Origin: an uncultured Gemmatimonadales bacterium
Lineage (GTDB): Bacteria; Gemmatimonadota; Gemmatimonadetes; Longimicrobiales; RSA9
Assembly (NCBI GenBank): GCA_963728445.1
Contig: CAVSJO010000003.1
Location: forward strand, 30,083 to 94,082
DNA length: 64,000 nucleotides
Direction of reading: 5' to 3'
Each line of letters begins with the position of its first letter. Within the stretch, counting starts at the first letter, position 1. The notes beneath the pieces are model-generated. The model saw only the letters and a program-made list of their open reading frames with translations, searched no databases and had not been told where the DNA came from. The position numbers were made by a program, and so were the translations under genes. Below are positions 47,153 through 64,000 of the stretch, in pieces.

Positions 47153-47284
47153 GATGTCACAAGAATGCAAAGTCGTCGGCGGCGAGTCGAGAGCGCAATG
47201 AACGGTCCTTGTATGACGATGGCTTCCCGGCGTACTCTTCAATCCTCATGCAAACCGTTGCGGCGCCTGCCGCCCCCCGTTGAC

Positions 47285-49942
47285 GTGATCCCCGACCGCC
47301 TGTCCGCCGCCCTTGCGGACCGCTACCGCATCGAGCGCGAGCTCGGCGCCGGCGGAATGGCCACGGTCTACCTGGCCGAGGACCTGAAGCACCACCGCCA
47401 GGTCGCGATCAAGGTGCTCAAGCCGGAGCTGGCAGCCGTGCTCGGCGCCGACCGCTTCGTCCAGGAGATCACGACCACCGCGCAGCTCCAGCACCCGCAC
47501 ATCCTGCCCCTCTTCGACTCGGGCACCGCCGACGGCTTCCTCTTCTACGTCATGCCGTACGTCGAGGGCGAGACGCTGCGCGACAGGCTGAGCCGGGAGA
47601 CACAGCTCGGCGTGGGCGAGGCGGTGAGGATCACCCGGGAGGTGGCGGACGCGCTGGACTACGCGCACCGCCACGGCGTGGTCCACCGCGACATCAAGCC
47701 CGAGAACATCCTGCTGCACGACGGCCGTCCGATGGTTGCGGACTTCGGGATCGCGCTTGCCGTTTCGGCCGCGGCCGGCGGCAGAATGACCGAGACGGGG
47801 CTCAGCCTCGGCACGCCGCACTACATGAGCCCGGAGCAGGCGACGGCGGAGAAGGACCTCACCGGGCGCAGCGACGTCTACTCGCTGGCGAGCGTCCTCT
47901 ACGAGATGCTCACCGGCGACCCGCCGCACACCGGGTCTTCGGCCCAGCAGATCATCATGAAGATCGTGACGGAGGAGGCGGCGCCGGTCACGAAGCTCAG
48001 GAAATCGGTGCCGCCGAACGTGGCGGCGGCCGTGGCGAAGGCGCTGGAGAAGCTGCCAGCCGACCGGTTCGACAGCGCGAAGGCGTTCGCGGATGCGCTG
48101 GCGGATCCCGGGTTCTCGGCCGGCCGCGGAGTGGCGGCCGCCGCGGCCGCCGATTCGCCGCGGGCGGGTCGTGCCCGCACCCGGGACCCCGTCTTCCTGG
48201 GCCTTGGCGCCGTCGCTCTGATACTGCTGATCGCCGCCACGTGGGGATGGTTCCGCCCCGTTTCCCGTGACACGCAGCAGGGCGTCTTCGAAATCTCTGT
48301 ACCCGGCTCGAGCCAGCACGCAGGCCTGACGATCACCGGGTTCGCCGCCGCCCCGGACGGCAGCTCCATCATCTATCAGGATTGGGCAGGGCAGCTCATG
48401 CTGCGCGGACGGAGCGAGGCTGAGGCCAAACCCGTGGCGGGCGGCGTGAGCGGGTGGATGCCCTTCTATTCGCCCGACGGCAGGTCCGTCGCCTGGGAGA
48501 CCGGATTTCCGGGTTCCCTCGCCACCGTTGCCGTGGGCGGCAGTGCGCCCCGCGTCCTGGTGCGTGATTCCGTGGTCGCCTACGGCGGTGCGTGGGGAGA
48601 CGACGGGATGCTGTATTTCACGTCGAACCATGGCGATCTGATGCGCGTTTCTGCCGGCGGCGGTGAGCCGACGGTGGTGGCCCGACCGGACAGGAACGGG
48701 GGTCAGCTCCAGCTGGTCGCTCCGAGCCTGCTTCCCGGTGGCAAGGCGGCCCTCGTCATCGTCATCAGCGATCAACCGCCCGAAGTCGCGGTCGTGGAGC
48801 TCGCCACCGGTGCGGTGCGAAGCGTTGCCGCCGGGTCGACCGTCGCTTTCGCCCCTCCCGACTACCTCGTCGTCGGCCGGGATGACGGAACCATCGTGGC
48901 GATCCCGTTCGACCCGCGCCGACGGGAGGTGACCGGGCCGGAGGTGGTCCTCGCCACCGACTACCACCGCCCGTTCCAGGGCTCGACGGCCCCTCTGGCC
49001 GTCACCCTCACGGGGGAACTCTACTACGTCCCGGAAGACGGGGGCGTCGGCACCATCGTCCGGGTGGATCGGCAGGGTCGGGCGGAACCCCTCGACCCCG
49101 GCTGGCACGAAGCGCCCTCCGGGCTCGCGGTCTCCCCTGACGGAAAGCGCCTCGCGTTCAGCAAGCACACGCAGGGCCGGGACGAGATCTGGGTGAAGGA
49201 GCTCGACCGCGGGCCTCTCAGCCGCCTCGCCTTCGGCGGACTCATCAGCTACCGACCCGCGTGGTCATCTGATGGCCGCTGGATCTATTTCGTCTCCGAT
49301 CGCGACCCGGCCCTTCCGCAGAGTGTCTACCGCGTCGCCGCCACCGGCGGCGGCAGGGCCCAGCTCGTATACCGAACGGACCAGTCGATCGACGAAGTCA
49401 GCATCTCTCGCGACGGGGCCTGGCTGCTGTATCGCGAGGGCTCGGGCGGCGGGCGAGACGTGTTCGCCGTGCGAGTCGGAGAGCGGAACCCTACCGTTCG
49501 CATCGCCACCAGCGACGCCGAGGAGACCACGCCAGTGCTCTCTCCGGATGGACGGCTCGTGGCGTACACGTCCGATGAGTCGGGTCGGCGCGAGGTGTAC
49601 GTGCGGCCGTTCCCCGATCCCGGGACAAGCCGCTGGGCCGTGTCCGCCGGCGGCGGCAGCGAGCCGCGCTGGTCGAACAGTGGACGGGAGCTGTTCTACC
49701 GGAGCGCCGACAACCAGCTCATGGACGTACGCCTGGCCCCGGGCCCCGGCTTCGCCATCGCCGACCAGCGCGCGTTGTTCTCCGTCACCGACTACGATTC
49801 CGATGACAAGCACGGCCTCTTCGACGTCCTCCCCGATGACGAACACTTCGTCTTCGTGCGCCACGAGGGTAGAGACGGGCCCGTCACTATCCGGGTGCTC
49901 ATGAACTGGCAGAAGGCGCTGGCCCGGGGCGACTCACGATGA
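47285..49942 (+). CDS. Hanks-type Ser/Thr kinase + TM + TolB-like (PD40) beta-propeller
   Basis: GAGGMATVY, VAIK, HRDIKPEN, DFG, GTPHYMSPE and DVYSL; TM segment; SPDG repeats. GTG at 47285. Confidence 0.9.
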   Translation: MIPDRLSAALADRYRIERELGAGGMATVYLAEDLKHHRQVAIKVLKPELAAVLGADRFVQEITTTAQLQHPHILPLFDSGTADGFLFYVMPYVEGETLRDRLSRETQLGVGEAVRITREVADALDYAHRHGVVHRDIKPENILLHDGRPMVADFGIALAVSAAAGGRMTETGLSLGTPHYMSPEQATAEKDLTGRSDVYSLASVLYEMLTGDPPHTGSSAQQIIMKIVTEEAAPVTKLRKSVPPNVAAAVAKALEKLPADRFDSAKAFADALADPGFSAGRGVAAAAAADSPRAGRARTRDPVFLGLGAVALILLIAATWGWFRPVSRDTQQGVFEISVPGSSQHAGLTITGFAAAPDGSSIIYQDWAGQLMLRGRSEAEAKPVAGGVSGWMPFYSPDGRSVAWETGFPGSLATVAVGGSAPRVLVRDSVVAYGGAWGDDGMLYFTSNHGDLMRVSAGGGEPTVVARPDRNGGQLQLVAPSLLPGGKAALVIVISDQPPEVAVVELATGAVRSVAAGSTVAFAPPDYLVVGRDDGTIVAIPFDPRRREVTGPEVVLATDYHRPFQGSTAPLAVTLTGELYYVPEDGGVGTIVRVDRQGRAEPLDPGWHEAPSGLAVSPDGKRLAFSKHTQGRDEIWVKELDRGPLSRLAFGGLISYRPAWSSDGRWIYFVSDRDPALPQSVYRVAATGGGRAQLVYRTDQSIDEVSISRDGAWLLYREGSGGGRDVFAVRVGERNPTVRIATSDAEETTPVLSPDGRLVAYTSDESGRREVYVRPFPDPGTSRWAVSAGGGSEPRWSNSGRELFYRSADNQLMDVRLAPGPGFAIADQRALFSVTDYDSDDKHGLFDVLPDDEHFVFVRHEGRDGPVTIRVLMNWQKALARGDSR

Positions 49943-50349: not shown

Positions 50350-51387
50350 TCACCGCTGCACGCGGCCGCTTCCGTGGCCTGCCACGAGCGCTTCGACTTC
50401 GGCGGCACTGACGCGGTTGAAATCCCCTGGGATGGAGTGCTTCAGACAGCCGGCGGCGGTAGCGAACTCCAGGGCATGCCCGTCGTCGCCGTACGCCAGA
50501 GCTCCGTAGATGAACCCCGCCGCGAATGCATCCCCGCTTCCCACCCGGTCCACGATGTCGGGAATGTCGTAGGTCCGCGCCTCCATGAACTCCTGTCCGT
50601 TGTGGAGGCACGCGCTCCAGGTGTTGTGGTCGGCGCTCAGGCTCTCGCGCAGCGTGATGACCTGCTTCTGCAGATTGGGAAACGCCTCCATCACCTTCTC
50701 GGCCAGGGCTCGGTATCGATCGCGCTCGAGCGACCCTTTCTCCACGTCCACGTCGGCCTGGATGCCGAGCGAGCGCTGGCAGTCCTCCTCGTTCGCGATG
50801 CCGACCGACACGTGCCTGAGGATCTTCCTCATGACCTCCGGCGCCGTCTTTCCGTACTTCCAGAGGTTCTTCCGGAAGTTGTAGTCGCAGGAGACGGTCA
50901 CGCCCTTCGCCCGGGCCTGCTTCACGGCTTCGAGAGACATCTCCGCGGCGGCCGCGCTGAGAGCCGGCGTGATGCCGCTGATGTGGAACCAGTCGGCGCC
51001 GCGGAAGATCGAGTCCCAGTCCATTTCGTCGAGCCGTGCGGTGGCGATGGACGATCCGGCCCGATCGTACACGACGCGGCTCGGCCGCTGATTCGCTCCG
51101 GCTTCCAGGAAGTAGATGCCGAGGCGGCCGCCTCCGCGCCGAACCAGCGCCGTGTCGACGCCAAGACGGCGCAGCTCGGCGATGGCGTGATCGCCGATGG
51201 GGTTGTCGGGCACGACGGTGCAGAACGCCGCGTCCATCCCGTAGTTGGCGAGGGAGACCGCCACGTTGCTCTCGGCACCTCCGAAGGTGGCCTCGAGGGT
51301 CGGGCTCTGCAGCAGCCTCTCCCGCCCCGGCGCCTTGAGGCGGAGCATGATCTCACCGAGCGTGACGACGCGCGGACGGCCGCTCAT
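50350..51387 (-). CDS. kdgK: 2-keto-3-deoxygluconate kinase (PfkB family)
   Basis: Motifs [35 protein letters not shown] and DRVGSGDAF. Confidence 0.85.
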
Positions 51388-52058
51388 CGAGCCCGCCCGG
51401 CGAGGGCCGAGCCGGTCGGGCCCCCATCGAGACGCCGAACCACCGTCATCGCGCGCTCCGCCTCTTTCCGAATGGACGAAAACGCTCCCGCTTCGATTGC
51501 CGGCGCTGGCACGAGCCACGACCCACCGCATGCGAGCACTCGATCGCTGGCCAGGTAGGACGGAAGGTGCTGGAGGCCGATGCCCCCGGTGGGGATGAAT
51601 CGAACCCCGGGAAACGGGGCCGAAATCGCCTTCAGAAACGCCACTCCTCCCATGGGCTCCGCGGGAAAGAACTTCAATACGTCGAGCCCCATGGCCAGAG
51701 CCGCCTGGATCTCGCTCGGCGTGCAGACCCCCGGATAGACCGCGAGCTCGTTGTCCTGACAGAACTCCACGACGTCCCGGTCGAAACCCGGTGAGACGAT
51801 GAAGTGAGCTCCCGCGTCCCTCGCGAGGGCGGCCTGCTCGCGGGTCAACACCGTTCCGGCTCCCAGCAGAACGTCCGGCACCTCTGCGGCGATGCGCCGC
51901 AGCGCCTCCGCGGCCGCAGACGTGCGGAACGTGATCTCCGCGCACGGAATTCCGCCGTCCCGAAGCGCCTTCGCCAGCGGAACGGCTCGCTCGGCATTCC
52001 GGATCACGACCACCGGAACGACCTTGAGCCTCCCCACCCTATCGATCGTCGGCTCCAT
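51384..52058 (-). CDS. eda: KDPG/KHG aldolase
   Basis: Motifs [39 protein letters not shown] and FIPTGGI. Confidence 0.95.
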
Positions 52059-53154
52059 CCCGTCCCTCCCCGCCCTCGCGTCCGTCGCGACCCGGCTGGT
52101 CTCCGCCTCTGCGGCGAGAACCGTCGCGGCCTCCGATGCCTTCCCACAGCCCCTGCAGATACGCCGCGCCGAGGGCTCGATCGTGCAGTCCGTACCCGGG
52201 CTGACCGGTTTCACCCCAGATCATGCGACCGTGGTCGGGCCGCACGGGCCCGTCGAAGCCGACGTCGCGCAGGGCGCGAAAAACCTCGAGCAAGTCCACG
52301 CCGCCGAAGCGCGAAGGGTGGGGCGTCTCGTGGAAGCACTTCGGCCCCGTGACCTTCACGTTCCGGCAGTGTGCGAAGTGGATCCGCGTGCCGAGGCCGC
52401 GGATCATTCCAGGGAGGTCGTTCGCGGGATCCGCTCCGAGGGATCCGGTGCAGAACGTGATGCCGTTCGCGGGCCTGTCCACGAGCCGGAGCACGCGTTC
52501 GAGCGCCGCCCCGTCCGTGACGATCCGCGGCAGTCCGAAGACCGACCAGGGGGGGTCGTCCGGATGCAGGGCCATCTTCACGCCCGACTCCTCTGCCACG
52601 GGCACGACCGCGGACAGGAAATACTCCAGGTTCTCCCAGAGCGCCTCGTCGTCCATGCGGCGAAAGTCCGCCAGAAGCCCGGGGAGCGCCGACGGGTCCG
52701 GCGGGAACCACGCCGGCAGGGCCGCCGGTCCCCTCACCGGATCGAGCGACGCGAGAAGGACGGGATCGTAGGACAGCGTGGTCGAGCCGTCTCCGAGGGG
52801 CATGTCCACGCGGGTCCGCGTCCAGTCGAGGACCGGCATGAAGTTGTAGCAGACGACGGGCACCCCCACCCGCCCGACGACGCGGAGGCTCTCGCAGAAC
52901 CGCTCGATGAGCCCGTCCCGGGAGGGGCGGCCGAGCTTGATGTCGTCGTGGATCGGGATGCTCTCGACCACCGCGAAGCGGAAGCCGGCCGCGTCGATGG
53001 CCTCCGCCAGGCCACTCATCGCGTCCATCGACCAGGCCTCGCCCGCGGGCACGCCATGCAGCGCGCTCACGATGCCCTCGACGCCGGGGACCTGTCGTAT
53101 GGTGGACAGCGATACGGGGTCGCGCGCCCCGAACCACCGGAAGCTCATCTGCAT
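52039..53154 (-). CDS. uxuA: Mannonate dehydratase
   Basis: Motifs MSFRWFG, VVESIPIHDDIK, CYNFMPVLDWTRT, ALHPDDPPW, FAHCRN, RPDHGRMIW and PGYGLHDRALG. Confidence 0.95.
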   Translation of the reverse strand: MQMSFRWFGARDPVSLSTIRQVPGVEGIVSALHGVPAGEAWSMDAMSGLAEAIDAAGFRFAVVESIPIHDDIKLGRPSRDGLIERFCESLRVVGRVGVPVVCYNFMPVLDWTRTRVDMPLGDGSTTLSYDPVLLASLDPVRGPAALPAWFPPDPSALPGLLADFRRMDDEALWENLEYFLSAVVPVAEESGVKMALHPDDPPWSVFGLPRIVTDGAALERVLRLVDRPANGITFCTGSLGADPANDLPGMIRGLGTRIHFAHCRNVKVTGPKCFHETPHPSRFGGVDLLEVFRALRDVGFDGPVRPDHGRMIWGETGQPGYGLHDRALGAAYLQGLWEGIGGRDGSRRRGGDQPGRDGREGGEGRDGADDR

Positions 53155-53180
53155 GAAGCACCGCCCGGGCCGGACACGGC

Positions 53181-54113
53181 TCAGACCCCGCTGAACGCGC
53201 TGAATCCGCCATCCACGGGGATGATGGCGCCGTTCACGAAGGAGGCCGCGTCGCTGCAGAGCCATCGGACGGCGCCGGCGACCTCCTTCGGATCTCCCAG
53301 CCGTCCCATCGGCGTATGCCGGATGATCTCCCGGGCCCGTTCGGTGAAGCTTCCGTCCGGATTCAGCAGGGCGCTCCGGTTCTGATCGGCGAGAAAGAAG
53401 CCGGGGGCGACGGCGTTCACCCGCAGCCGGTCGCCGTAGCGGCGCGTCAGCTCCACCGCCAGCCACCGCGTGAAGTTGTCGATTGCGGCCTTGGCCGCGG
53501 AGTAGGCCATGACCCCGCTCAGCACGCGGACGGCCGCCATGGAGGAGAGGTTGACGATGCATCCGGAGCCCTGCTCCGCCATCGAACGGCCGAAGCACAT
53601 CGCGGGAAGGATCGAGCCGTGCAGGTTCAGCCGCAGCGCCTCGTCGAACGCGGGCATCGGGACCGTGAACACGCTCGATTCGTCGTTGCGTGCGGCAGCG
53701 AGATTTCCCCCCGCGGCATTCACGAGGATGTCGACGGCGCCCCAGGCGTCCAGGAGCCGAGCGCGCGCCTTCCCGAGCGCCGACTCGTCGAGGACGTCCG
53801 CGGTCAGGGCCATCGATCTGCCGCCAGCCGCACAGATCGACTGTGCCTTGTGTTCTGCGGCGGCACTGCGTCGGCCCAGGATGGCCACACGCGCGCCCGC
53901 CCGGCCGAGCTCGTCGGCGATGGCCCCGCCGAGTACGCCGTACCCGCCGCAGACCAGCGCGACCCTGCCCGTCAGGTCGAACGGGTCCACGCCGTGCGCG
54001 TGCGTCGAAACGGTCGTCGGTCTCGCCGGCGCTGCGCGACGCTCCGTGGCGACGAGGCCTGGCGCCTCCAGCCCGCCGGTGCGGACGGGTCCGTCCCCTC
54101 GCGGGCGTGTCAC
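53181..54113 (-). CDS. uxuB: D-mannonate oxidoreductase / fructuronate reductase, SDR type
   Basis: Motifs GGYGVLG, NAAGGN, YSAAK and RVNAVAPGFFLADQNR; adjacent to uxuA. Start uncertain. Confidence 0.75.
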   Translation of the reverse strand: MTRPRGDGPVRTGGLEAPGLVATERRAAPARPTTVSTHAHGVDPFDLTGRVALVCGGYGVLGGAIADELGRAGARVAILGRRSAAAEHKAQSICAAGGRSMALTADVLDESALGKARARLLDAWGAVDILVNAAGGNLAAARNDESSVFTVPMPAFDEALRLNLHGSILPAMCFGRSMAEQGSGCIVNLSSMAAVRVLSGVMAYSAAKAAIDNFTRWLAVELTRRYGDRLRVNAVAPGFFLADQNRSALLNPDGSFTERAREIIRHTPMGRLGDPKEVAGAVRWLCSDAASFVNGAIIPVDGGFSAFSGV

Positions 54114-55430
54114 CTAGTGCTCACGCGCGGCGATCTGCCGTTCGATGGACGCCTGGAGAGACGGGAGATAGCGCAGTGCGTTCTCGTAGTAGACCTTCTT
54201 CAGCACCTCGTCGGGCAGCCCGATCCCGGAGATGTTGTAGCGGCCGTGGCCGGGAGAACCGCCGGGCGTGCGGATCTGCGCCGGGTGGTAGAAGTGCTCG
54301 TCGAAGGTCTCCAGGAACCGCCAGTGGGGGATCCAGAACTCGTCGACTCCCCGGCCCGGATTGCCATCGGAGCCGAAGAGGATCTGGTCCTGGTACTTGA
54401 TGAAGAACTCACGCCAGAGCCTGGGCGCCCGGCCGAGATCCTGCACCGCTGCGGACATGTCGACCGACGCGTTCGGAAACTCGTCCAGGAATGCGGCGAG
54501 CTTCTGAGGGTCGTAGTAGAGCATGGCCATGTGGCACCAGATGAAACGAGTGTTCGGGTGCCGCCGCATCAGCCTCACCCGAGCCTTCTCGATCTCCTCG
54601 CGGGGAGGCCCGTCCGTGTAGAGGTTGGTCTCACCCTCGTGGTGCCAGAGTCCCGCTTCGTAGCGCTCGTTCAGCGGACCGATGGGATAGAACCGCCCGA
54701 CCGAATCGCTCGTGTGGATGACCACGGGGATGTTGTATCGGGCCGCCATCTCCCAGATCGGGTCGAGGCGAGGATCGTCCGCCTGGATGAAGGAACCGTC
54801 GGGGTTCTTCCATTCCTGCCCGATCGCCTTGCTCACCTCCCCCATGCAGGGCGCCCCGGCCTTGAACGCTCTCTCCATCTCCGCGGCCACCCGCTCCGGC
54901 CAGCCGGGGACACGGATGCTGTCGTCCCCTCCCCTGCCGATGTTGAAGCAGTTGACGACCCGGTCGCGGTACGGCTTGCCCGCGGCGAGCACGCTGTCGA
55001 GGTGCGCTCCGCTGCCGGCGCTCATGTTCCAGATCACGCCGACGCCGGTGGAATCCATTCTCGCGATCAGCGCCTCGTACGCCGCGTGCGTCGTGAGCCC
55101 TCCGGCATGAACGTGCACGTCGATCGCCGGATACTTAGCCCGGTAGATGTTCGTCCGGGGAAGGCGAAGCAGGATGTACGGCATGGGCGGCGTCTCGATG
55201 CCGTCCCGGTGCCATCCCGGGGGCGGGGCCGTGGCCTGCAGTGGCGGCATGGGCGGAACCCACGTCGCGCCTTCCGCCACGCTGTCCGGAGCTCTCGGGA
55301 GAACCGGGATCACGGTGCCATCCCGGGACCGCAGGACTCCATCGTCCTGCTGCGCCTCGACGGCTCCGGCGGACAGGACCGTGCCCCACGCGATCCCCGA
55401 GACGATCAGTAGTGACGCAACAGTGCGCAT
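54114..55430 (-). CDS. Exported amidohydrolase-2 family metallohydrolase
   Basis: Signal peptide (AVEA/QQ) and Pro-rich linker; IDVHVH, IHTSD, CHMA and FGSDG metal-binding pattern. Confidence 0.8.
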   Translation of the reverse strand: MRTVASLLIVSGIAWGTVLSAGAVEAQQDDGVLRSRDGTVIPVLPRAPDSVAEGATWVPPMPPLQATAPPPGWHRDGIETPPMPYILLRLPRTNIYRAKYPAIDVHVHAGGLTTHAAYEALIARMDSTGVGVIWNMSAGSGAHLDSVLAAGKPYRDRVVNCFNIGRGGDDSIRVPGWPERVAAEMERAFKAGAPCMGEVSKAIGQEWKNPDGSFIQADDPRLDPIWEMAARYNIPVVIHTSDSVGRFYPIGPLNERYEAGLWHHEGETNLYTDGPPREEIEKARVRLMRRHPNTRFIWCHMAMLYYDPQKLAAFLDEFPNASVDMSAAVQDLGRAPRLWREFFIKYQDQILFGSDGNPGRGVDEFWIPHWRFLETFDEHFYHPAQIRTPGGSPGHGRYNISGIGLPDEVLKKVYYENALRYLPSLQASIERQIAAREH

Positions 55431-55539
55431 CGATTCATGCCTCCAGTTCCAGGGATCGGCGTCCGGAATACCTGTCCGGATCCGCGAAAAGGCCTTCGGT
55501 TCTGTCCGACCGCGCAGCGGGTCCTCGACTTCCGGACAG

Positions 55540-57675
55540 CTAGCCGCGGCCGAGCGCCCGCACCAGGTAGTCGACGATTGCGTTCTGCTGCGCCGGCGTG
55601 GTCGTATCCAGGAAGCCGCGTCGGTTGAAATCCTCGACCAGGAGCCGCCACTCCTGCTCCGTTCTGCGCGTCGATACGATCCGGTCGGCCGAGTGGCAGC
55701 TGGTGCAGGCCTCCTGCACCAGCTCACGGCCCGGCAGCTCCGGCAGCTGCGCTCCCTCCATGCCGCCGAGATACCCGTCTGGCGGAGGCTCCACGGGCGG
55801 CGGCGACAGCGGCTTCCGGGGCTCCATCGACGGGACCGGTGCGTCCGCGTTCAGCGCGAACGTGTACAGGCGTCCCGGAGCGTGGCTGCCGCCTCGCCCG
55901 GTCATGACCGAGACGTACTGGCGGCCGTCGATCCTGTAGGTGACCGGATTCGCGAATCCCGGCGCGAGAGGAAACTCCCAGACCTTCTCGCCCGTGTCCG
56001 CGCGATAGGCGTCGAACGTTCCGCTGCCGTTGCCGTGGAACACCAGGTTGCCCGCCGTGGTGAGCGTGCCCCCGCTCACCCCCGGCCTGTCGAATCGGAT
56101 GCGCCAGCGTTCCTTCTGTGTGACGGGATCCCAGGCAACCAGGAACGCCCCGGAGCCGCCCAGGCCCACCACCTGCGGATCCATCTCCCGATCCCGGCCG
56201 CCCTGGAATGCCGCAGTGCTACGGGCGCCGGGTCCGCCGGAGGCGGCGGCGCCTCCCGATCCCCCATCGGGGGAGGGCCGCCGTCGCCCCATTCCGAGGC
56301 CCATCCGCCCCGGCTGGACCGAGAAGTCGGGGTCCACGGAATACCAGCGCGACGTCTCCTGCCCCGGCACGTAGACGAGGCCGGTGGCCGGATTCCACGA
56401 CATCGCATGCCAGTTGTGCGCTCCGTCGGAACCCGGCGAGACCTCGGCGCCCTGGATCCCGTAGCGGGCGACGTCGGTCTCGATGGGGCGACCGGCCGAA
56501 TCGTATCCGCTTGCCCACGTGACCTTCGTGAACGGCTTTGCCGACAGGAACTCGCCCGTCACGCGGTCGAGGACGAAGAAGAACCCGTTCTTCGGAGCCT
56601 GCATGATGGCGTGGCGCTTCCGGCCGTCCAGGACGAGATCGGCGAGAATGAGCGGCTGCGTCGCGGCGTAGTCCCAGTCGTCGCCCGGCGTCGTCTGATA
56701 GTGCCAAACGTATTCGCCCGTCCGCGGACGAACCGCCATGATCGAGGCCAGATACAGGTTGTCGCCGCCTCCGGGGCTGCGGATGTCGCGGGGCCACGGC
56801 CCCCCATTGCCGACCCCGACGTACAGGAGGTCGAGCTCCGGGTCGTAGGCCATCCCGTCCCACACCGTCCCGCCGCCTCCGTACCTCCACCACGCCCCGC
56901 TCCACGTCTTCGCGGCACGGGCGAGCGCTTCGCTCTCGAACGGCTTCGTGGGGTCGCCGGGAACGGTGTAGAAGCGCCAGACGAGCTCTCCCGTCTCGGC
57001 ATCGTACGCGGACACGTATCCCCGGATCCCGAACTCGGCGCCGCTGTTGCCGACGATCACCATTCCGTCGATGATCCGGGGCGCACCCGTGATGCTGTAG
57101 TCGTCCTCGGGGCTCGTGACCGCCGCGGTCCAGACCTCCGTGCCCGTCTTCGCGTCGAGGGCGACCAGTCGGCCGTCCAGCGTTCCGACGTAGACCCTGC
57201 CTTCGTACAGGGCGACGCCGCGATTCACGGGACCGCAGCACAGCGCGGGACCGCGGCGGTATCGGACTCCCAGCGAATCCGTGACCCACTCCTGATGGGG
57301 GATCTGCGGGTCCCAGCGCCACTTCTCCTCCCCCGTCCTTGCGTCCACCGCGAAGACGACGCTCCAGGTCAGGGTGCCGTATAGCGTGCCGCCGGCCTCG
57401 ATCGGGGTGCCTTCGATCTGACCCGCGTAGGACGCCGGCTGGTACGACCACGCGAGGCCGAGCTGGCCTGCGTTGCCGGCGTCGATCTGGTCCAGCGGAC
57501 TGAAGTGGGTCTCGGAATAGTCCCGGCCATAGCCGAGCCAGTCGTCGGCCGGCGCAGCAAGCAGTTCCCGATCGCCGGGATACCGTCCGGTGTCCGTTCC
57601 GTCGATCGCCGCGCACGCTCCCGCCGTGAGCAGCAATAGCGCCGGAAGCAACCACCGTCGTGTCATGCCCATCAT
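55540..57675 (-). CDS. PQQ-dependent dehydrogenase (methanol/ethanol family) with a C-terminal c-type cytochrome
   Basis: Lipobox-like TAGAC, vicinal LCCGPVNRG, NSGAEFG, WDGMAYD, PGDDWDYAATQ, APKNGFF, GGTLTTAGNLVF and CxxCH (ACTSCH). Confidence 0.9.
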   Translation of the reverse strand: MMGMTRRWLLPALLLLTAGACAAIDGTDTGRYPGDRELLAAPADDWLGYGRDYSETHFSPLDQIDAGNAGQLGLAWSYQPASYAGQIEGTPIEAGGTLYGTLTWSVVFAVDARTGEEKWRWDPQIPHQEWVTDSLGVRYRRGPALCCGPVNRGVALYEGRVYVGTLDGRLVALDAKTGTEVWTAAVTSPEDDYSITGAPRIIDGMVIVGNSGAEFGIRGYVSAYDAETGELVWRFYTVPGDPTKPFESEALARAAKTWSGAWWRYGGGGTVWDGMAYDPELDLLYVGVGNGGPWPRDIRSPGGGDNLYLASIMAVRPRTGEYVWHYQTTPGDDWDYAATQPLILADLVLDGRKRHAIMQAPKNGFFFVLDRVTGEFLSAKPFTKVTWASGYDSAGRPIETDVARYGIQGAEVSPGSDGAHNWHAMSWNPATGLVYVPGQETSRWYSVDPDFSVQPGRMGLGMGRRRPSPDGGSGGAAASGGPGARSTAAFQGGRDREMDPQVVGLGGSGAFLVAWDPVTQKERWRIRFDRPGVSGGTLTTAGNLVFHGNGSGTFDAYRADTGEKVWEFPLAPGFANPVTYRIDGRQYVSVMTGRGGSHAPGRLYTFALNADAPVPSMEPRKPLSPPPVEPPPDGYLGGMEGAQLPELPGRELVQEACTSCHSADRIVSTRRTEQEWRLLVEDFNRRGFLDTTTPAQQNAIVDYLVRALGRG

Positions 57676-57875
57676 CGCAGCGACCTCGCCCCCTCTGGTC
57701 GACATTGCCCGCCGGGCAACAGCACGAGTATCCGAAGGGGGAATCCTTGAAGCGGCGGATCTTACCAACTCCGGACGCAGGAACGGAGCAAGCTCGATGT
57801 CGGCCGGAACTGGTCGCGGTTCGGGCGACGGCGCATATTCTGCCGGGCCCACGTGCTTCCGATCGCGAAAGCGAC

Positions 57876-59350
57876 GTGCGGCGGACGACCATCCTGGATC
57901 GCCACGACAGCCCGGAGGAGCGGATTCCCGACAGCGGCCCTCTCCACGTAGATCGATTCTTCGACCCCGACCGGGGCGTACGACGCGTTGCGCGGAGTCT
58001 CTGGGAGGAGGCGAAGTCGCTTCCGCTCGTCTGCCCCCACGGACACGTGGATCCCGCCAGTCCTCGCCGAGGACCGCCCCTTCCTGGAGCCGATGAGTGC
58101 GTTGATCCATCCGGACCACTACCTCGTCCGGATGCTCTACTCGCGTGGCGTTCGCCTCGAATCGCTCGGGCTTCCGAGCCGCGACGGGACACCGGGCGAG
58201 CCTGACCCGCGTCGTGGCTGGCAGGCGTTCGCGGACCACGTTCATCTTTTCCGGGCAACGCCTTCGGGCGCGTGGCTGAACTTCGTGCTCCACGAGGTCT
58301 TCGGCGTGGACAGGACGCTGACGGCCGGGACGGCACCGTCGATATACGACGAGATCCGCGAGAAGCTGGCGGCTCCGGAGTTCCGCCCTCGGGCACTCTT
58401 CGAGCGCTTCGGCATCGAGGTTCTCGCCACCACGGATGCGGCGGAGGATCCGCTGGAGGCGCATCGACGGCTCGCGGAGTCGGGCTGGGCGGGCCGCGTG
58501 ATTCCCACGTTCCGACCGGACGCACTCTTCCACATCGCGGATCCCGGGTGGCCCGCCCGCCTGGAGGACCTCGAAGGGGCGTGCGGCTACGGGATCAGGG
58601 ACTACGACGCGTTCGTCCGAGCGCTGGAGGACCGGCGGACCTTCTTTCGTTCGATGGGAGCCACGGCCACGGACCACGCCGTCGTTCAGCCTCGCGTGAC
58701 GGGAACGTCACGAGAAGCCGCGGCCCGAGCTTTCGCGGCCGCGCTCGAGGGGCGGGCGGACGCGGAAGACCAGCGTCGCTTCGAAGGCTGGATGCTGATG
58801 GAGATGGCGCGCATGTCGGCCGACGACGGGATGGTGATGCAGCTCCGTGCGGGCGCCCTCCGCAATCACGATCGAGCGCTGTTCGACCGCTATGGTCCCG
58901 ATCGGGGCGGGGACATCCCCGTCGCCGTGGAATTCACACGGAGCCTGCAGCCGTTGCTCAACGAGTACGGAAACGAGCCACGGCTCACCCTCGTGCTCTT
59001 CACGCTGGACGAGTCGACCTATGCGCGGGAGCTGGCCCCCCTCGCCGGACACTACCCGGCCCTCCGCCTGGGGCCACCGTGGTGGTTCCACGACTCCGTC
59101 GAGGGCATTCGCCGGTACCTCGACAGGACGGTGGAAACGGCAGGATTCTACAACCTCGTCGGCTTCAACGACGACGCCCGCGTGCTCTTCTCGATCCCGG
59201 CTCGCCATGACATGGCTCGCAGAGTCAGCGCGAACTGGCTCGCAGCGCGGGTCGGCCGAGCACGTCCTGGACCTGCAGGACGCTCGGGAGCTGATCCGCG
59301 CCCTCGCCTACGACCTGCCGAAGGAGGCGTACCGGCTCGTGCCTGGATGA
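57876..59350 (+). CDS. uxaC: Uronate isomerase, with two +1 frameshifts (about 58059 and 59254)
   Basis: Motifs PLVCPHGHVDP, PDHYLVRMLYS, PTFRPD, GATATDH, GGDIP, LGPPWWFHDS, GFNDD and SIPARHDMARR; start uncertain. Confidence 0.9.
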
Positions 59351-59395
59351 GCTCGCGGCCTCGGCGGCCGGCAGACGCCCGTTGGAATCACACCG

Positions 59396-60613
59396 TCAGG
59401 CGATCTGGGGAGCAGCGAGATCCCGCGCCAGCACGAGCGCCGCGGCCCCGCGGAGGCGCGGGTAGGGCTCGTGGTCCGGGACGACGGGAGTCTCGGCGGC
59501 TGCCGGCGTGAGCGCCCGGGCCCGGAGCACGACTCGCAGGGGGGGTTCGATGATGTCCCAGGCCGCAGCGATGTCGCCGGCGATGTAGATCCGCGCCGGA
59601 TTCAATGCGTGAACCGCTACAGAAACACCGTGACCCAGGAACCGACCCGTTTCTTCCAGGGCGGCGCGTGCTCTCCCGTCGCCGTCGCGGGCGCGCGCGA
59701 TCAATTCGGCGATCGTGAGCTCGATGTCCGTCAGTCGCGGCGCAATCGCCTCCGAACCCGCTCCATCCCCAGGTAGCGCGCGAGCGTGGCGAGGTTCGAC
59801 GTGTGGGCCTCCAGGCACCCGCGGGACCCGCACATGCACGGGGGCCCGGCCGGGTCGATGACCACGTGACCCAGCTCGCCGGCCAGGTGGCCGTGTCCCC
59901 GGACGACCTGCCCGTTCACGGCGACGCCGGCGCCGACACCTTCGAAGATGCTGATGTAGACGAAGTCGCCGCCCTGGTGCTCCGTCTCACCACCGAGCCA
60001 CAGCTGAGCCAGTGCAGTGGCCCGGGCTGCATTCTCGATGAACACCGGGTGTCCCGTCGCCTCCTGGAGCGCATCACGGATGTTCACGTCGCGCCACCCG
60101 AGCTGGGGCGCGTTCAGCACGCGTCCGGTTTCCTGCTCCACCATGCCCGGTACCACCAGTCCGATGCCCTCGCAGCTTCCACGCTTGCGGTGGGTGCCCA
60201 GACTCGCGTCGATTCGCGACGCCACCTCGGCTACTACCCTCGTCCGGATCGGTGAGCGTCCGGAAGGACTCCAGGTGGATCGGGGTCCCGCCGAAGTCGC
60301 TCAGCATCAGCTGCGTGTGACCGAACCGGATGTCCACGGCCACCACGAGGCGGTCTTCGGTGCGGATCCTCAGGAGCTTCGGTTTCCGTCCGCGCGGGAT
60401 GTCGACGGTATCGCCCTCGACGATCTTGCCCTCGTCCAGGAGCTCCGAGACGAGCGCGGTGATCGTCCCCCGGCTCATCTTCAGGTGGCGCGCCAGATCC
60501 GCGCGGGAGAGGGCGTCGTGCTCGTGGAGCAGGTTGAGCAGAATCCGTCGGTTGACGTCCCGGGCCGTGCCGCGGGTCGCACGGCGGAAGTCGTTGACGT
60601 TGATCTTTCTCAG
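59396..60613 (-). CDS. ROK family transcriptional repressor (NagC/XylR-like), with two frameshifts (about 60238 and 59760)
   Basis: HTH NRRILLNLL...LSRADLARHLKMSRGTITALV, GRKP, GIGLVVPG, IENAA, GVGAG and GELGH...CMCGSRGCLE. Start appears to be CTG 60613 after GGGAGG. Confidence 0.85.
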
Positions 60614-60674
60614 GGGGTCCTCCCCTCGGGAATGCTTGCGTCCCGGGAGGCCGGGTGGTATTCTGTTCAGCGAT

Positions 60675-60695
60675 TTAGTTCTCGCATCAAACAAA
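60675..60695. promoter_or_regulatory. ROK (NagC/XylR-type) operator 1
   Basis: TTAGTT-N9-AACAAA, upstream of the ROK gene. Confidence 0.65.
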
Positions 60696-60800
60696 GTCGC
60701 TGATCACCCGACATCCTGGCAAGCCTTACGACTTCCGGAGCGGGGTCTGGCCCTTGTCCCTCCCTTGCGGCAGACCCCCTTGACATAAAAATCCGCCTTA

Positions 60801-60819
60801 TTGTTTGGAGTACGAACAA
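60801..60819. promoter_or_regulatory. ROK (NagC/XylR-type) operator 2
   Basis: TTGTT-N9-AACAA, just upstream of the ECF sigma RBS; a consensus TTGACA lies at 60780-60785. Confidence 0.65.
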
Positions 60820-60836
60820 ACTGTCGGGAGGTGCGT

Positions 60837-61433
60837 ATGGCCCGTCCGCTGCCGCTGCCTGAAACACAACTGCGTGACTCCCAATCGCCCGGCGCCGCCG
60901 GAGCCCAGCTCATGCCCCGCATCCGCGCCGGCGAGGCCGGTGCGCTCGATGGCCTGGTCCGACAGCACTGGTCGTGCCTGGTCCGGTACGCGCACCGGAT
61001 GCTGGGCTCGGACGACGAAGCCAAGGACGTCGCCCAGGAGGTCTTCATCCGCGCGTGGGAGACGCGGGAACGGTGGCAGCCGGGCGGTTCCGAAAAGGCC
61101 TTCCTGATCCACGTAGCCCGCAACCTCTGCCTTCAGCGCCTCCGCCGCGCCAGGGTCCGTCAACGCTCCAAGCCGAAGGTCGGGCCAGGGTCGAAGGCGC
61201 GCCCTCGCACCCCGATGGACGAGGTGTATCACGGGGAGCTCAGACAGGCCCTGCTCAGAGCCCTCGGATGCCTCCCCGACCGGCGCCGGGAGGCGTTCGT
61301 CCTGGTGCGTGTGGACGGCCTGAGCCTCGGAGCAGCCGCCGAACGAATGGGGGTGACCAAGCGGACGGTGGCCAACCACGTCGACATGGCCCGCTGCGAC
61401 CTCAGACAGACGCTCCAGGCGTTCGCGAACTGA
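60837..61433 (+). CDS. ECF sigma-70 factor
   Basis: Region 2 AKDVAQEVFIRAW...VARNLCL; region 4 LPDRRREAFVL...GLSLGAAAERMGVTKRTVANH; GGGAGG upstream. Confidence 0.9.
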   Translation: MARPLPLPETQLRDSQSPGAAGAQLMPRIRAGEAGALDGLVRQHWSCLVRYAHRMLGSDDEAKDVAQEVFIRAWETRERWQPGGSEKAFLIHVARNLCLQRLRRARVRQRSKPKVGPGSKARPRTPMDEVYHGELRQALLRALGCLPDRRREAFVLVRVDGLSLGAAAERMGVTKRTVANHVDMARCDLRQTLQAFAN

Positions 61434-61467
61434 GCGGCGAGGGCACATCCACACCTGGAGGACCGCG

Positions 61468-62251
61468 ATGGAAGTCGATCATCCAGCAGGACTACGAGCA
61501 GATGAGCAGGCTCGCGGCGCAGTTCGTCGTCGAGGTCATCAACGCCAAGCCCAGCGCCGTGCTGGGCATGGCGACCGGGTCCACCCCGCTGGGGCTCTAT
61601 CAGGAACTGGTGCGGCTGCACAGGGAAGAACAACTCGATTTCTCCCGCGTCACGACCTTCAACCTCGACGAATACGTGGGTCTGGGAGCGAATCATCCGC
61701 AGAGCTACTATTACTTCATGCACGAGAATTTCTTCAAGCACGTAAACATACCACCCCATAATATCAATATCCCATCCGGGACCACCAGTAACTACCCGGC
61801 CTTCTGCGAATGGTACGAACAGCGCATCGCGGATTCTGGCGGAATCGACCTGCAGATCCTGGGCATCGGCTCGGATGGCCACATCGCGTTCAACGAGCCG
61901 ACCAGCTCACTCAGCTCACGCACGCGACTCAAGACGCTGTCGAGGCAGACGATCGGCGACAACGCGCGATTCTTCGAGCGCCGGGAGGACGTGCCGATCT
62001 ACGCGATCACGATGGGCGTCGGAACCATTCTGGACGCACGAAAGCTGATCCTTGTGGCAAGCGGATCGGGCAAGGCCGACGCCATTTCGAAGGCCGTCGA
62101 AGGCCCCGTCACGAGCATGATCACCGCGAGTGCCCTTCAGATGCACCGCGATGCGACGGTGATCGTCGACAGGGAGGCGGCCGCTGCACTCACGATGCGT
62201 GACTACTACGACTTCATCTACGCCGCGAAGCCGGCGGCGCCACGGTTCTGA
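61468..62251 (+). CDS. nagB: Glucosamine-6-phosphate deaminase, +1 frameshift at 61477
   Basis: GGAGG + ATG GAA GTC [G] ATC ATC (MEV-II); LGMATGSTP, FNLDEYVGL, GIGSDGHIAFNEP and ITMGVGTIL. Confidence 0.95.
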
Positions 62252-62283
62252 ACGGTCGGTGCGCCTCCTCCGGTGAGGTTTCC

Positions 62284-63564
62284 ATGACAGCACTACCCGG
62301 GCGGTGGGCAGCGGTGATCCTGCCTGCTCTGCTGGTGGCCATCAGTCTGCCGGCGCGCGCCCAGACTCCCGCTCCGGGCGACCCGTTGCCGCCGTGGACG
62401 CCCGGTACGCTGGACATCCACCACATTGCCACCGGCGAAGGGAACGCGACCTTCTTCGTCCTGCCCGATGGAACGACCATGCTCGTCGACGCCGGGGCAG
62501 CGGTGGCCGGACGCGCGCCGATCGCGCCTCCGGTCCCGGACGACGGCCGCCGCGCCGGTGAGCACATCGCCGCCTATGTCCGTGGCATGATGCCGGCGGG
62601 TCGAGAGCCGGCCATCGACTATGCCGTCATCACGCACTTCCACGGCGACCACATGGGCTTCGTGAGCGACGCGTCCCCCCGCTCGCGTCGCGGCGATTAC
62701 CGCCTGGCCGGCATCACCGACGTGGCCGAGGCCGTGCCCGTCCACAAGCTGATCGACCGGGGGTGGCCCGACTACGACTATCCGGCTCCGGTCCCGAACA
62801 TCGGGAACTACCGCCGTTTCATCGCCGCGCACACGCAGGCGGGCGACCTGACCGTCGCCCGCTTCGAGCCTGGCCGGAACGACCAGCTGCGCCTGCTCCG
62901 CAGCGCCGCGAAGTACCCGACGTTCGAGATCCGCAACCTGGCCGCGAACGGCGAGGTCTGGACGGGATCGGGCGACGCGACCCGCAGCGTGTTTCCACCG
63001 CTCGGCACGCTTGCGAAGGACGACTGGCCGAACGAAAACATCTGCTCGGTCGCCTTCCTGCTTCGCTATGGGGCGTTCTCGTACTTCACCGGCGGTGACC
63101 AGGAGGGCGTGCCGCCCGACGGCTTCCCGGCATGGCAGAACGTGGAGACGCCCATCGCCGAGGCGATCGGCCATCCGGTGGACGTAGTCGTCGTCGATCA
63201 CCATGGCTCGATCGAGCCCGCGAACGCGTTCTTTCTGAAGACGCTGCGCCCGCGCGTGGACGTGGTTCCCGCGTGGTCGACGACGCATCCGGCGCCGGTG
63301 GTGCTCAAGCGCCTGTTGAACGAACGGATCTACCCGGAGCCTCGGGACATCTTCATCCTGGAATTTCGCGACGCGACGAAGGCCGCCATCGGGCCGCGGG
63401 CGACGCAGGTCGCCAGCGATCACGGCCACGTCGTGGTGCGTGTAGCGCCCGGCGGCGCGTCCTACATGGTGTACGTGCTCGACGACAGGTCGGACGCCCA
63501 TGCGATACTGTCCGTCCACGGCCCCTACACCTCGGGCGCCCGGAGCGAGACGCCGTCCCACTAG
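62284..63564 (+). CDS. Exported ComEC/Rec2-like metallo-beta-lactamase-fold hydrolase
   Basis: Signal peptide, TLDIHHI..GEG.ATF, TMLVDAG, THFHGDH, NENICSV, YFTGGD and DHHGS. Confidence 0.8.
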   Translation: MTALPGRWAAVILPALLVAISLPARAQTPAPGDPLPPWTPGTLDIHHIATGEGNATFFVLPDGTTMLVDAGAAVAGRAPIAPPVPDDGRRAGEHIAAYVRGMMPAGREPAIDYAVITHFHGDHMGFVSDASPRSRRGDYRLAGITDVAEAVPVHKLIDRGWPDYDYPAPVPNIGNYRRFIAAHTQAGDLTVARFEPGRNDQLRLLRSAAKYPTFEIRNLAANGEVWTGSGDATRSVFPPLGTLAKDDWPNENICSVAFLLRYGAFSYFTGGDQEGVPPDGFPAWQNVETPIAEAIGHPVDVVVVDHHGSIEPANAFFLKTLRPRVDVVPAWSTTHPAPVVLKRLLNERIYPEPRDIFILEFRDATKAAIGPRATQVASDHGHVVVRVAPGGASYMVYVLDDRSDAHAILSVHGPYTSGARSETPSH

Positions 63565-63566
63565 CG

Positions 63567-64000
63567 TCAGCGCGCCGCCGGCCTCCAGCCCAGCAGCAGC
63601 CCCACCACCAGCACGGTCACCGAACCCACCACGTTGAGCCAGAGGTAGGCGACTTCCGGCGCGCCGAAGGTCACGGCGGCTACCGCGCACATGCCGGCGA
63701 TCAGCCCCCAGAAGGCGCCCCGGCCGCGCGTGCCCGGGATCATGGCCAGGACGAAGACGCCCAGGATCGATCCATAGAAGAACGATCCGAACCGGTTGAC
63801 CACCTCGATGAGGGAGCCCAGCGTGGCCGCATAGGTGGCCACGACGCAGGCGAAGAGGCCCCAGAAGCCCGTCGTGATCTTGGACACGCGCAGCAGGTGG
63901 GAGTCCGAGCCGTCGGGGCGTACCCAGCGCCGGTAGAAGTCCACGACGGTGGCCGTGGAGAGCGAGTTCAGCTCGGCGGCGATGCTGGACATGGCGGCCG
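63567..64000 (-). CDS. Sodium:solute symporter, C-terminal part (gene runs off the window)
   Basis: [25 protein letters not shown] and [17 protein letters not shown]. Confidence 0.85.

Follow-up and report, generated by a model that had tools for sequence, protein, structure and literature searches.

A conserved PQQ dehydrogenase-amidohydrolase module in a Gemmatimonadota SusC/SusD locus, and its probable UxaC-independent feed into the uxu pathway

How is a hexuronate operon supplied when its first two genes encode a pyrroloquinoline quinone (PQQ) dehydrogenase and an amidohydrolase, both apparently exported? The question is raised by a 64,000-nucleotide stretch of DNA (the window) from an uncultured soil bacterium of the Gemmatimonadales (assembly GCA_963728445.1, contig CAVSJO010000003.1; C3:30083-94082), whose 4.3-Mb genome was assembled into 8 contigs with 70.6% G+C. 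Gene identities were assigned with Pfam and NCBIfam models, coordinates were refined by start codons and ribosome-binding sites, and export of the two enzymes was predicted from signal-peptide-like N-termini. All genes listed in a preliminary description of this DNA were recovered where it had placed them. Positions 50350-64000 prove to be the downstream half of a SusC/SusD locus of ∼31 kb, which is cut by the window edge and continues on the same contig and strand. The locus probably combines a conserved module with a UxaC-independent feed into the uxu pathway. We give about an even chance to the account as a whole, in which a SusC/SusD locus carries this feed and operates it by C6 oxidation and deamination; that specific chemistry, read from sequence, is put forward only tentatively.

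The run of genes from kdgK back to the amidohydrolase is tightly packed, each gene abutting or overlapping the next as described previously, with the exception of a 26-nt gap between uxuB and uxuA. The eda stop and the kdgK start coincide in an ATGA, uxuA extends 20 nt into eda, and the TAG stop codon of the amidohydrolase directly abuts the GTG start codon of uxuB. In 12 of 13 loci this last junction is either an overlap (GTGA) or a direct abutment (TAG-GTG), and on this arrangement the amidohydrolase is predicted to be translationally coupled to uxuB. The amidohydrolase has its own GGAGG 9 nt 5′ of the ATG. It is separated from the PQQ dehydrogenase by a spacer of 109 nt (46-150 nt in relatives), in which a terminator-like or promoter-like site was looked for and none was seen; its predicted folding is no stronger than that of shuffled sequence (z = 0.79), and no structured RNA was seen. 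The possibility raised earlier, that such a site separates the two enzymes from uxuB, therefore finds no support here. For kdgK the best NCBIfam matches are 2-keto-3-deoxygluconate (KDG) kinase models, every one below its cut-off, and orthologues of 73-77% identity close the operon in relatives. The assignment of uxuB stands as to function, the protein being of the short-chain dehydrogenase/reductase (SDR) type and not of the long-chain mannitol-dehydrogenase type.

Of 80 species-representative loci from Gemmatimonadota and Acidobacteriota, 43 have a PQQ dehydrogenase as the immediate same-strand neighbor of the amidohydrolase (45 of 84 when all loci are counted), and this adjacency persists where the dehydrogenase is only 35-39% identical. 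It lies upstream of the amidohydrolase in 14 of the 15 Gemmatimonadota species loci; in Acidobacteriota it is mostly downstream, the upstream order being found in four loci. Judging from this synteny and the predicted export, the two genes constitute a conserved periplasmic module. The Gemmatimonadota order is PcRGLX, PQQ dehydrogenase, amidohydrolase, SDR-type UxuB, UxuA, Eda and KdgK (14 of 15 species loci, contig permitting), preceded upstream of PcRGLX by SusC, SusD, DUF8034, Nramp-like and NagB-like genes, and the complete array is seen on a single strand in locus L002 and in genome G153. The proposal that both exported enzymes belong with the uxu genes is thus supported: at least 14 species of Gemmatimonadota keep them in synteny with uxuB and uxuA, and the amidohydrolase is coupled to uxuB. 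The Acidobacteriota pair occurs without uxu genes and often beside a separate dihaem cytochrome c, a ConA-like protein, an outer-membrane barrel, and a major facilitator superfamily (MFS) or amino-acid permease. If the two genes merely stood by chance beside an ordinary hexuronate operon, solitary homologues of each would be expected, and some do occur (L003, L007). Chance would nevertheless have to account for an order kept in at least 14 species, for translational coupling to uxuB, and for the perfect co-occurrence, across the phylum sample described below, of the module with UxuA and the NagB-like gene; we consider it very improbable.

Conservation of the operon does not extend to UxaC. Of 13 genomes with the operon, two (the present one and its closest relative) have it and 11 do not, seven control genomes being positive in the same search. 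For phylogenetic profiling, 151 Gemmatimonadota genomes were evenly drawn. An amidohydrolase orthologue (≥67% identity) was present in four of them (G000, which is the genome studied here, G091, G136 and G153), and a close NagB-like orthologue (≥75% identity) was present in the identical four, 5-6 kb from the amidohydrolase. UxuA occurred in 19 of the 151 genomes and UxaC in 16, and those with UxuA but without UxaC were exactly the three other module carriers (Fisher p = 0.004). In Gemmatimonadota, UxuA accompanies either UxaC or the PQQ dehydrogenase/amidohydrolase module, and UxaC is not part of the conserved operon design. Because most genomes with the array are without UxaC, the array most likely makes D-fructuronate or D-mannonate by a route in which glucuronate isomerase has no part. 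The preliminary description had recognized a complete Ashwell route. As in that pathway, genes for the SDR-type UxuB, UxuA, a KdgK-like kinase and Eda are contiguous here, and in this genome UxaC is encoded next door; as the conserved logic of the locus, however, the complete route does not hold, since UxaC is absent from most operon genomes and from the other module carriers, and the PQQ dehydrogenase, the amidohydrolase and a NagB-like protein occupy the place of the isomerase step.

The NagB-like protein of the conserved operon, encoded beyond the window, is the best candidate for a replacement of UxaC. It scores 132 bits against TIGR00502 (cut-off 237) and falls below every NagB cut-off, but aligns with the NagB proteins of B. 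subtilis and S. mutans and keeps the LDEY and NGH(I/V)AFN catalytic motifs. ATGSTP is changed to A(T/S)(G/A)xSQ and FNEP to FNDPP, so that the GSTP phosphate-binding motif common to NagB and 6-phosphogluconolactonases is lost, and a conserved insertion, LDxACRxQQVxxGWF, is present. In G010, the nearest relative, the gene immediately precedes UxaC, and in the Acidobacteriota genome G178 it is two genes away from UxaC. It adjoins the amidohydrolase in four Acidobacteriota loci and is present in 22 of 27 amidohydrolase-bearing Acidobacteriota genomes. One variant, G001, has the same gene set rearranged, with the amidohydrolase at the far end of the locus. No NagB-like gene was found anywhere in the G001 genome, and a GFO/MocA oxidoreductase and a class-III aminotransferase are encoded directly upstream of its PQQ dehydrogenase. 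These two enzymes could together turn a 2-amino-uronate into fructuronate, by transamination to a 2-keto aldehyde and then reduction at C1, which would be chemically equivalent to the deamination proposed below for the NagB-like enzyme.

In the upstream half of the locus, 12-17 kb beyond base 64000, SusC and SusD are adjacent and are accompanied by candidate glycan-active genes. The earlier remark that no glycoside hydrolase or lyase is visible was an artefact of the window edge: a PcRGLX/PL26-like protein and a DUF8034 protein are encoded 6-13 kb past the end, beside SusD and SusC. The PcRGLX-like protein is a distant relative of the PL26 exo-rhamnogalacturonan lyase 5xq3 (E = 9e-14, residues 31-582) and has weak Pfam domain matches. 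The DUF8034 family is strongly conserved (56-65% identity across phyla). Its modeled structure (pLDDT 80) consists of an (alpha/alpha)6 barrel and a beta-sandwich, for which a fold search gave remote similarity to GH76, GH127 and GH146 that is not diagnostic of the glycan. Two homologues of ∼59% identity come from Alphaproteobacteria. One, from the cultured species Caulobacter segnis (L092 10001-11809), is divergent from a gene for a 790-aa protein with a pectinesterase domain (CE8); the other, on a Brevundimonas-like contig (L093 10001-11872), lies near genes for GH28, AXE1/glucuronoyl-esterase-like (GCE-like) esterases and TonB receptors. Both offer a genetically tractable handle on the family. 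The sole inner-membrane transporter of the conserved operon is a very divergent Nramp-like protein (64 bits against the MntH model, cut-off 430), which may import a sugar acid, a sugar amino acid or a metal chelate rather than free Mn or Fe. Like polysaccharide utilization loci (PULs) of the Bacteroidota type, the locus has a SusC/SusD pair, candidate glycan-cleaving enzymes, monosaccharide catabolism, and an extracytoplasmic function (ECF) sigma factor and a ROK regulator nearby; it differs in its Gemmatimonadota host, in having no classified glycoside hydrolase families, and in relying on the Nramp-like protein alone as the inner-membrane transporter of the conserved operon. Upstream of SusC in G153, a complete Longimicrobiales genome, Amidohydro_1/3 and M20/M28 peptidase-family proteins are encoded (L091 8906-12998), which are further candidate deacylases.

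The PQQ dehydrogenase begins with MMGMTRRWLLPALLLLTAGAC, a signal peptide or lipobox. It matches alcohol dehydrogenase (ADH) IIB (1kv9) with 588 bits, the propeller core being ∼60% identical. When it is aligned to 1kv9 and 1kb0, the vicinal Cys-Cys pair and the DNLYL and GDxWD (GDDWDY) motifs fall in register, so that the Cys-Cys, Asn and Asp motifs are conserved. By these propeller features it is classed as type II quinohaemoprotein-like. The haem domain is short (55540-55740): its CxxCH motif is CTSCH, and the following 50 residues contain no Met, His or Cys. The C-terminus thus differs from a class-I cytochrome c domain in having no downstream Met ligand, placing the sixth haem ligand elsewhere than in class I. 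Only the CxxCH region of this C-terminus aligns to ADH IIB, with weak matches to QHNDH and SorB-type haem domains. The protein shares the propeller and fused c-type haem domain of the type II quinohaemoprotein ADHs (ADH IIB, ADH IIG and qhEDH), and is set apart from them by the short haem domain, by loop insertions at about residues 120-135 and 443-499, and by its SusC/SusD context. Note that Gemmatimonadota genomes often hold as many as eight PQQ dehydrogenase genes, or more.

The ADH IIB class oxidizes primary alcohols, and an ordinary role can be imagined in which the dehydrogenase acts on methanol, ethanol or another alcohol freed from an esterified or methylated acidic glycan, and owes its place in the locus to that side product alone, while the amidohydrolase trims separately. 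The very high similarity to ADH IIB and qhEDH fits such a role, as do the CE8 pectinesterase-domain, GH28 and acetyl/glucuronoyl esterase-like genes beside DUF8034 in Alphaproteobacteria. It explains neither the pairing of the dehydrogenase with the amidohydrolase across two phyla nor the loss of UxaC in carriers, and the conserved operon contains no esterase. We judge it improbable; this and chance adjacency are the readings least consistent with the data.

The amidohydrolase family is large (423 confirmed loci) and 57-84% identical across Gemmatimonadota and Acidobacteriota, and 97% of 114 full-length homologues have a signal-peptide-like N-terminus. Its AlphaFold2 model is a TIM barrel whose Foldseek matches are all amidohydrolase barrels. 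In keeping with PF04909, an HxH motif lies on strand 1, His residues on strands 5 and 6, and Asp on strand 8; H106-x-H108, K201 (after strand 4), H239, H300 and D355 are invariant in 33 sequences. On sequence comparison this HxH, K, H, H, D ligand set is that of binuclear hydrolases. No NCBIfam model matched the protein, no PDB sequence matched it better than E = 0.56, and it could not be assigned to a characterized subfamily (lactonase, decarboxylase, hydratase or deacetylase). Residues 45-95 (window 55150-55300) form a conserved Pro-rich N-terminal extension with many invariant Pro, Trp and Gly residues and very low model confidence; perhaps it serves for docking to a partner such as the PQQ dehydrogenase.

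An exported dehydrogenase followed by a hydrolase recalls the classic oxidase/lactonase arrangement, as in the conversion of glucose to gluconolactone and gluconate in pseudomonads. By analogy, the PQQ dehydrogenase would oxidize a hexose at C1 (e.g. D-mannose) to an aldonolactone, the amidohydrolase would act as a lactonase, and imported D-mannonate would enter at UxuA, which is in the operon, with no need for UxaC. Sugar and pyrone lactonases are among the characterized PF04909 relatives, LigI-like hydrolases are among the fold matches, and the Acidobacteriota versions have genes for a ConA-like lectin/glucanase-type domain, an outer-membrane barrel and MFS proteins. Such a scheme leaves the SDR-type UxuB and the NagB-like protein, both fixed in the operon, without a role. 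To our knowledge, moreover, known PF04909 lactonases do not have the binuclear ligand set found here, and we know of no type II quinohaemoprotein ADH that is an aldose 1-dehydrogenase. We therefore hold this aldose-to-aldonate scheme to be unlikely, though a lactonase role for the amidohydrolase remains a serious rival.

Of the schemes we considered, only one based on C6 oxidation assigns a role to each conserved cytoplasmic enzyme and requires no missing step. Oligosaccharides would be imported by SusC/SusD and trimmed by DUF8034 and the PcRGLX-like enzyme. In the periplasm, the PQQ dehydrogenase would oxidize a hexosamine or N-acetylhexosamine unit at its C6 primary alcohol, giving a uronic acid, electrons passing via the haem domain to the respiratory chain, and the binuclear-type amidohydrolase would remove the N-acetyl group or open a urono-lactone. 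The resulting sugar amino acid would be imported by the Nramp-like transporter, the sodium/solute symporter (SSS) being an additional candidate in this genome. The NagB-like enzyme would then run the NagB reaction on a 2-amino-2-deoxy-hexuronate, with the C6 carboxylate replacing the 6-phosphate, to give D-fructuronate and ammonia, and UxuB, UxuA, KdgK and Eda would convert fructuronate to pyruvate and glyceraldehyde-3-phosphate. Carried further, this chemistry would amount to an undescribed oxidative amino-sugar pathway, with PQQ-dependent C6 oxidation in place of phosphorylation, by which soil Gemmatimonadota (and partly Acidobacteriota) consume amino-sugar or hexosaminuronate polymers, e.g. 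microbial cell-wall necromass; we regard this as a possibility against which the balance presently tips.

Each part of the scheme has a relative among known systems. In the NagA/NagB pathway an amidohydrolase-superfamily enzyme likewise precedes a Glucosamine_iso-fold deaminase/isomerase with NagB catalytic motifs; here the hydrolase is predicted to be periplasmic and is unrelated to NagA, the GSTP motif is lost, and the conserved operon has no sugar kinase or phosphotransferase system acting before the deaminase. In polyvinyl alcohol (PVA) degradation, PVA dehydrogenase and oxidized-PVA hydrolase are a periplasmic quinohaemoprotein and a hydrolase acting on its product, to which the present pair may be likened, except that the partner hydrolase here is a TIM-barrel amidohydrolase and not an alpha/beta hydrolase. 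The closest logic is that of the ong pathway of Pseudoalteromonas prydzensis, in which N-acetylglucosaminate (GlcNAc1A) is converted to glucosaminate (GlcN1A) by OngB and then to KDG by OngC, followed by KdgK (PMC9537276, PMC12017989). There too an amidohydrolase-fold metal enzyme takes the N-acetyl group from an oxidized amino sugar acid, which is then deaminated and channelled to KDG, KdgK and KDPG (2-keto-3-deoxy-6-phosphogluconate) aldolase, and the cluster includes a TonB-dependent outer-membrane importer. In the ong pathway, however, oxidation is at C1 by a lytic polysaccharide monooxygenase, OngB is cytoplasmic, mononuclear and D-aminoacylase-like, and deamination gives KDG directly; the present locus would instead use a PQQ quinohaemoprotein as oxidant, an exported PF04909 hydrolase and passage via UxuB and UxuA, all of this chemistry being deduced from the genes. 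A literature search on quinohaemoproteins with amidohydrolases or lactonases and on PQQ enzymes in PULs, including those of Gemmatimonadota, found no description of the amidohydrolase family or of its pairing with a PQQ dehydrogenase, though none was sought on the NagB-like protein or a UxaC-independent uxu operon. The entry segment of the pathway is probably new, the PUL and hexuronate catabolism being of known kinds.

A different use of such dehydrogenases is suggested by the Acidobacteriota genome G178. Its locus L089 (C1:2608001-2628000) encodes, in order, a cytochrome c, a PQQ dehydrogenase (35% identical), a xylose-isomerase-like barrel, a glucuronoyl-esterase-like protein, a NagB-like protein, a 3-keto-disaccharide hydrolase and UxaC, with GFO/MocA and MFS genes nearby. 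These are gene families of the 3-keto-glycoside pathway in combination; the locus looks like a PQQ-driven version of that pathway and suggests that some PQQ dehydrogenases of this kind act in oxidative glycoside cleavage. Applied to the Gemmatimonadota operon, which has no classical glycoside hydrolase family, this would mean that a secondary hydroxyl (e.g. at C3) is oxidized by the PQQ dehydrogenase, that the keto-glycoside is hydrolyzed or hydrated by the amidohydrolase, and that a uronate-type product proceeds through the NagB-like enzyme, UxuB and UxuA. That operon, however, has neither a 3-keto-disaccharide hydrolase nor a xylose-isomerase-like lyase, the G178 dehydrogenase is a distant paralogue, and the amidohydrolase orthologue of G178 is on a different contig. 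The chance that oxidative cleavage explains the Gemmatimonadota operon appears small.

Several observations weigh against the account as a whole. The pattern of carriers without UxaC was not replicated in Acidobacteriota, where carriers have no canonical UxuA and UxaC is present in 16 of 27, and the argument that UxaC has been substituted is therefore limited to Gemmatimonadota. No match to pqqC (TIGR02111) was found in any of the 13 PQQ dehydrogenase-encoding genomes (G000 and 12 relatives), which would suggest that the PQQ cofactor is scavenged; the controls likewise gave no match, and without a positive control the search does not prove absence of the gene. We know of no PQQ enzyme that makes hexosaminuronates, and the characterized PF04909 members known to us are lactonases, decarboxylases and hydratases, none of them a de-N-acetylase. 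The fold matches of the amidohydrolase are remote (10-15% identity, TM-scores 0.4-0.6) and do not resolve its specificity. The NagB-like enzyme may simply isomerize a uronate, and the G001 variant is a single lineage. Finally, the CE8, GH28 and esterase neighbors of DUF8034 and the PL26-like, pectin-lyase-related character of the PcRGLX-like protein point more to an acidic plant-type glycan than to a polymer of amino sugars; we regard such a plant glycan and a microbial amino-sugar polymer as equally likely substrates.

In soil, the phyla Gemmatimonadota and Acidobacteriota are abundant but poorly cultured, and their carbon sources have largely been inferred. In this locus four families of unassigned function, the amidohydrolase, NagB-like, DUF8034 and Nramp-like proteins, are tied into a single conserved operon whose metabolic outlet is defined, running from mannonate through KDG to pyruvate and glyceraldehyde-3-phosphate, which makes their functions directly testable. 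If the module does form fructuronate without UxaC, this would be a new entry to hexuronate catabolism, and quinohaemoproteins would have a new role in glycan use, energy being conserved via periplasmic electron transfer to cytochrome c. An annotation as “glucuronate-utilizing” from uxuAB alone would be wrong for these lineages.

Table 1. Features of the locus in the window and, in window-equivalent coordinates, beyond its end at base 64000
Feature	Position	Strand	Evidence or remark
kdgK-like PfkB sugar kinase	50350-51387	-	PF00294 E = 5e-34; last gene of the operon
eda, KDPG/KHG aldolase	51384-52058	-	PF01081 E = 1e-69; TIGR01182 252 bits (cut-off 156)
uxuA, D-mannonate dehydratase	52039-53154	-	PF03786 E = 2e-129; TIGR00695 340 bits (cut-off 200)
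SDR-type D-mannonate oxidoreductase (UxuB-like fructuronate reductase)	53181-54113	-	NF006132 338 bits (cut-off 281)
Exported amidohydrolase (Amidohydro_2)	54114-55430	-	PF04909 82 bits (cut-off 26), E = 8e-23
PQQ dehydrogenase/amidohydrolase spacer, 109 nt	55431-55539	-	
PQQ methanol/ethanol-family dehydrogenase, C-terminal CxxCH	55540-57675	-	TIGR03075 551 bits (cut-off 480)
uxaC, glucuronate isomerase	∼57900-59350	+	NF002794 438 bits (cut-off 387), middle frame; divergent from the PQQ dehydrogenase
ROK regulator (NagC/Mlc type), N-terminal winged helix-turn-helix (HTH)	59396-60694	-	Pfam ROK and HTH
ECF sigma factor	60801-61433	+	Sigma70_r2 and r4_2; TIGR02937 89 bits (cut-off 43)
Canonical nagB, glucosamine-6-phosphate deaminase	61468-62251	+	TIGR00502 332 bits (cut-off 237); motif GMATGSTP
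Exported metallo-beta-lactamase (MBL)-fold protein	62284-63564	+	Weak Lactamase_B, 22.6 bits (cut-off 22.7); signal-like N-terminus
SSS transporter, C-terminal part	63567-64000, to window-equivalent 65240	-	PF00474
ArgH-like Lyase_1 protein	65407-66993		Off-window
PIG-L/NPCBM_assoc protein, 1005 aa	66870-69887		Off-window
PcRGLX-like three-domain protein	69758-72591		Off-window
NagB-like gene	72528-73283		Off-window
Nramp-like transporter	73310-74704 (L004 9793-11187)		Off-window
DUF8034 protein	74664-76622		Off-window
SusD (SusD_RagB, SusD-like_3)	76629-78050		Off-window
SusC (TonB_dep_Rec barrel)	78125-81465		Off-window

The remaining genes of positions 50350-64000 belong to an insertion that is particular to this lineage. 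PIG-L, ArgH-like, SSS, MBL, nagB, ECF sigma, ROK and uxaC genes have been placed between PcRGLX and the PQQ dehydrogenase, an insertion that would add ordinary glucosamine-6-phosphate and glucuronate branches to this genome. Orthologues of nagB and the MBL gene with 90% identity occur in L009, from the nearest relative, the only place where a nagB orthologue was found. The linkage of nagB, ROK and ECF sigma to the hexuronate operon, drawn in the preliminary description, is thus not supported as a conserved feature; the canonical nagB, ROK, ECF sigma and MBL genes are common only to this genome and its nearest relative, and the conserved partner is the off-window NagB-like paralogue. The link to amino sugars drawn from nagB nevertheless remains plausible, now supported by the NagB-like gene in the operon, by PIG-L, nagB and ROK in this genome, and by the aminotransferase of G001.

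Three genes of this insertion are interrupted. Two frameshifts are found in uxaC (∼58059 and ∼59254) and two in the ROK gene (∼60237 and ∼59750), the three frame pieces of the latter matching HTH_24, ROK 53-188 and ROK 194-292; nagB, which has a GGAGG 7 nt 5′ of its ATG at 61468, is broken once by a probable 1-nt insertion, an extra G at ∼61477, after codon 3. Off the window, the PcRGLX-like (L004 6241-9074) and SusC (L004 14608-17948) genes are also frame-split. Over 225 nt, an independent contig assembled from short reads of a soil metagenome is identical except for one base missing at 58057, which restores the uxaC frame; its coverage reaches one of the five in-window frameshift sites. Because this contig is without the 58057 base and off-window genes are likewise broken, the frameshifts in uxaC, ROK and nagB are probably indel errors of the long-read assembly, which is proven for the one site only. 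Pseudogenization of the three genes was rejected as the default explanation on the same two grounds, the sole testable indel being absent from short reads. Note that at least five breaks cluster in 57900-61480 and none occurs along the 7.3-kb run from kdgK to the PQQ dehydrogenase, an uneven spread that could reflect local coverage or strain mixture.

Just upstream of the stretch 50350-64000, positions 47144-49942 encode a 932-aa protein in which a Ser/Thr kinase, recognized by sequence motifs, is fused to a TolB-like beta-propeller.

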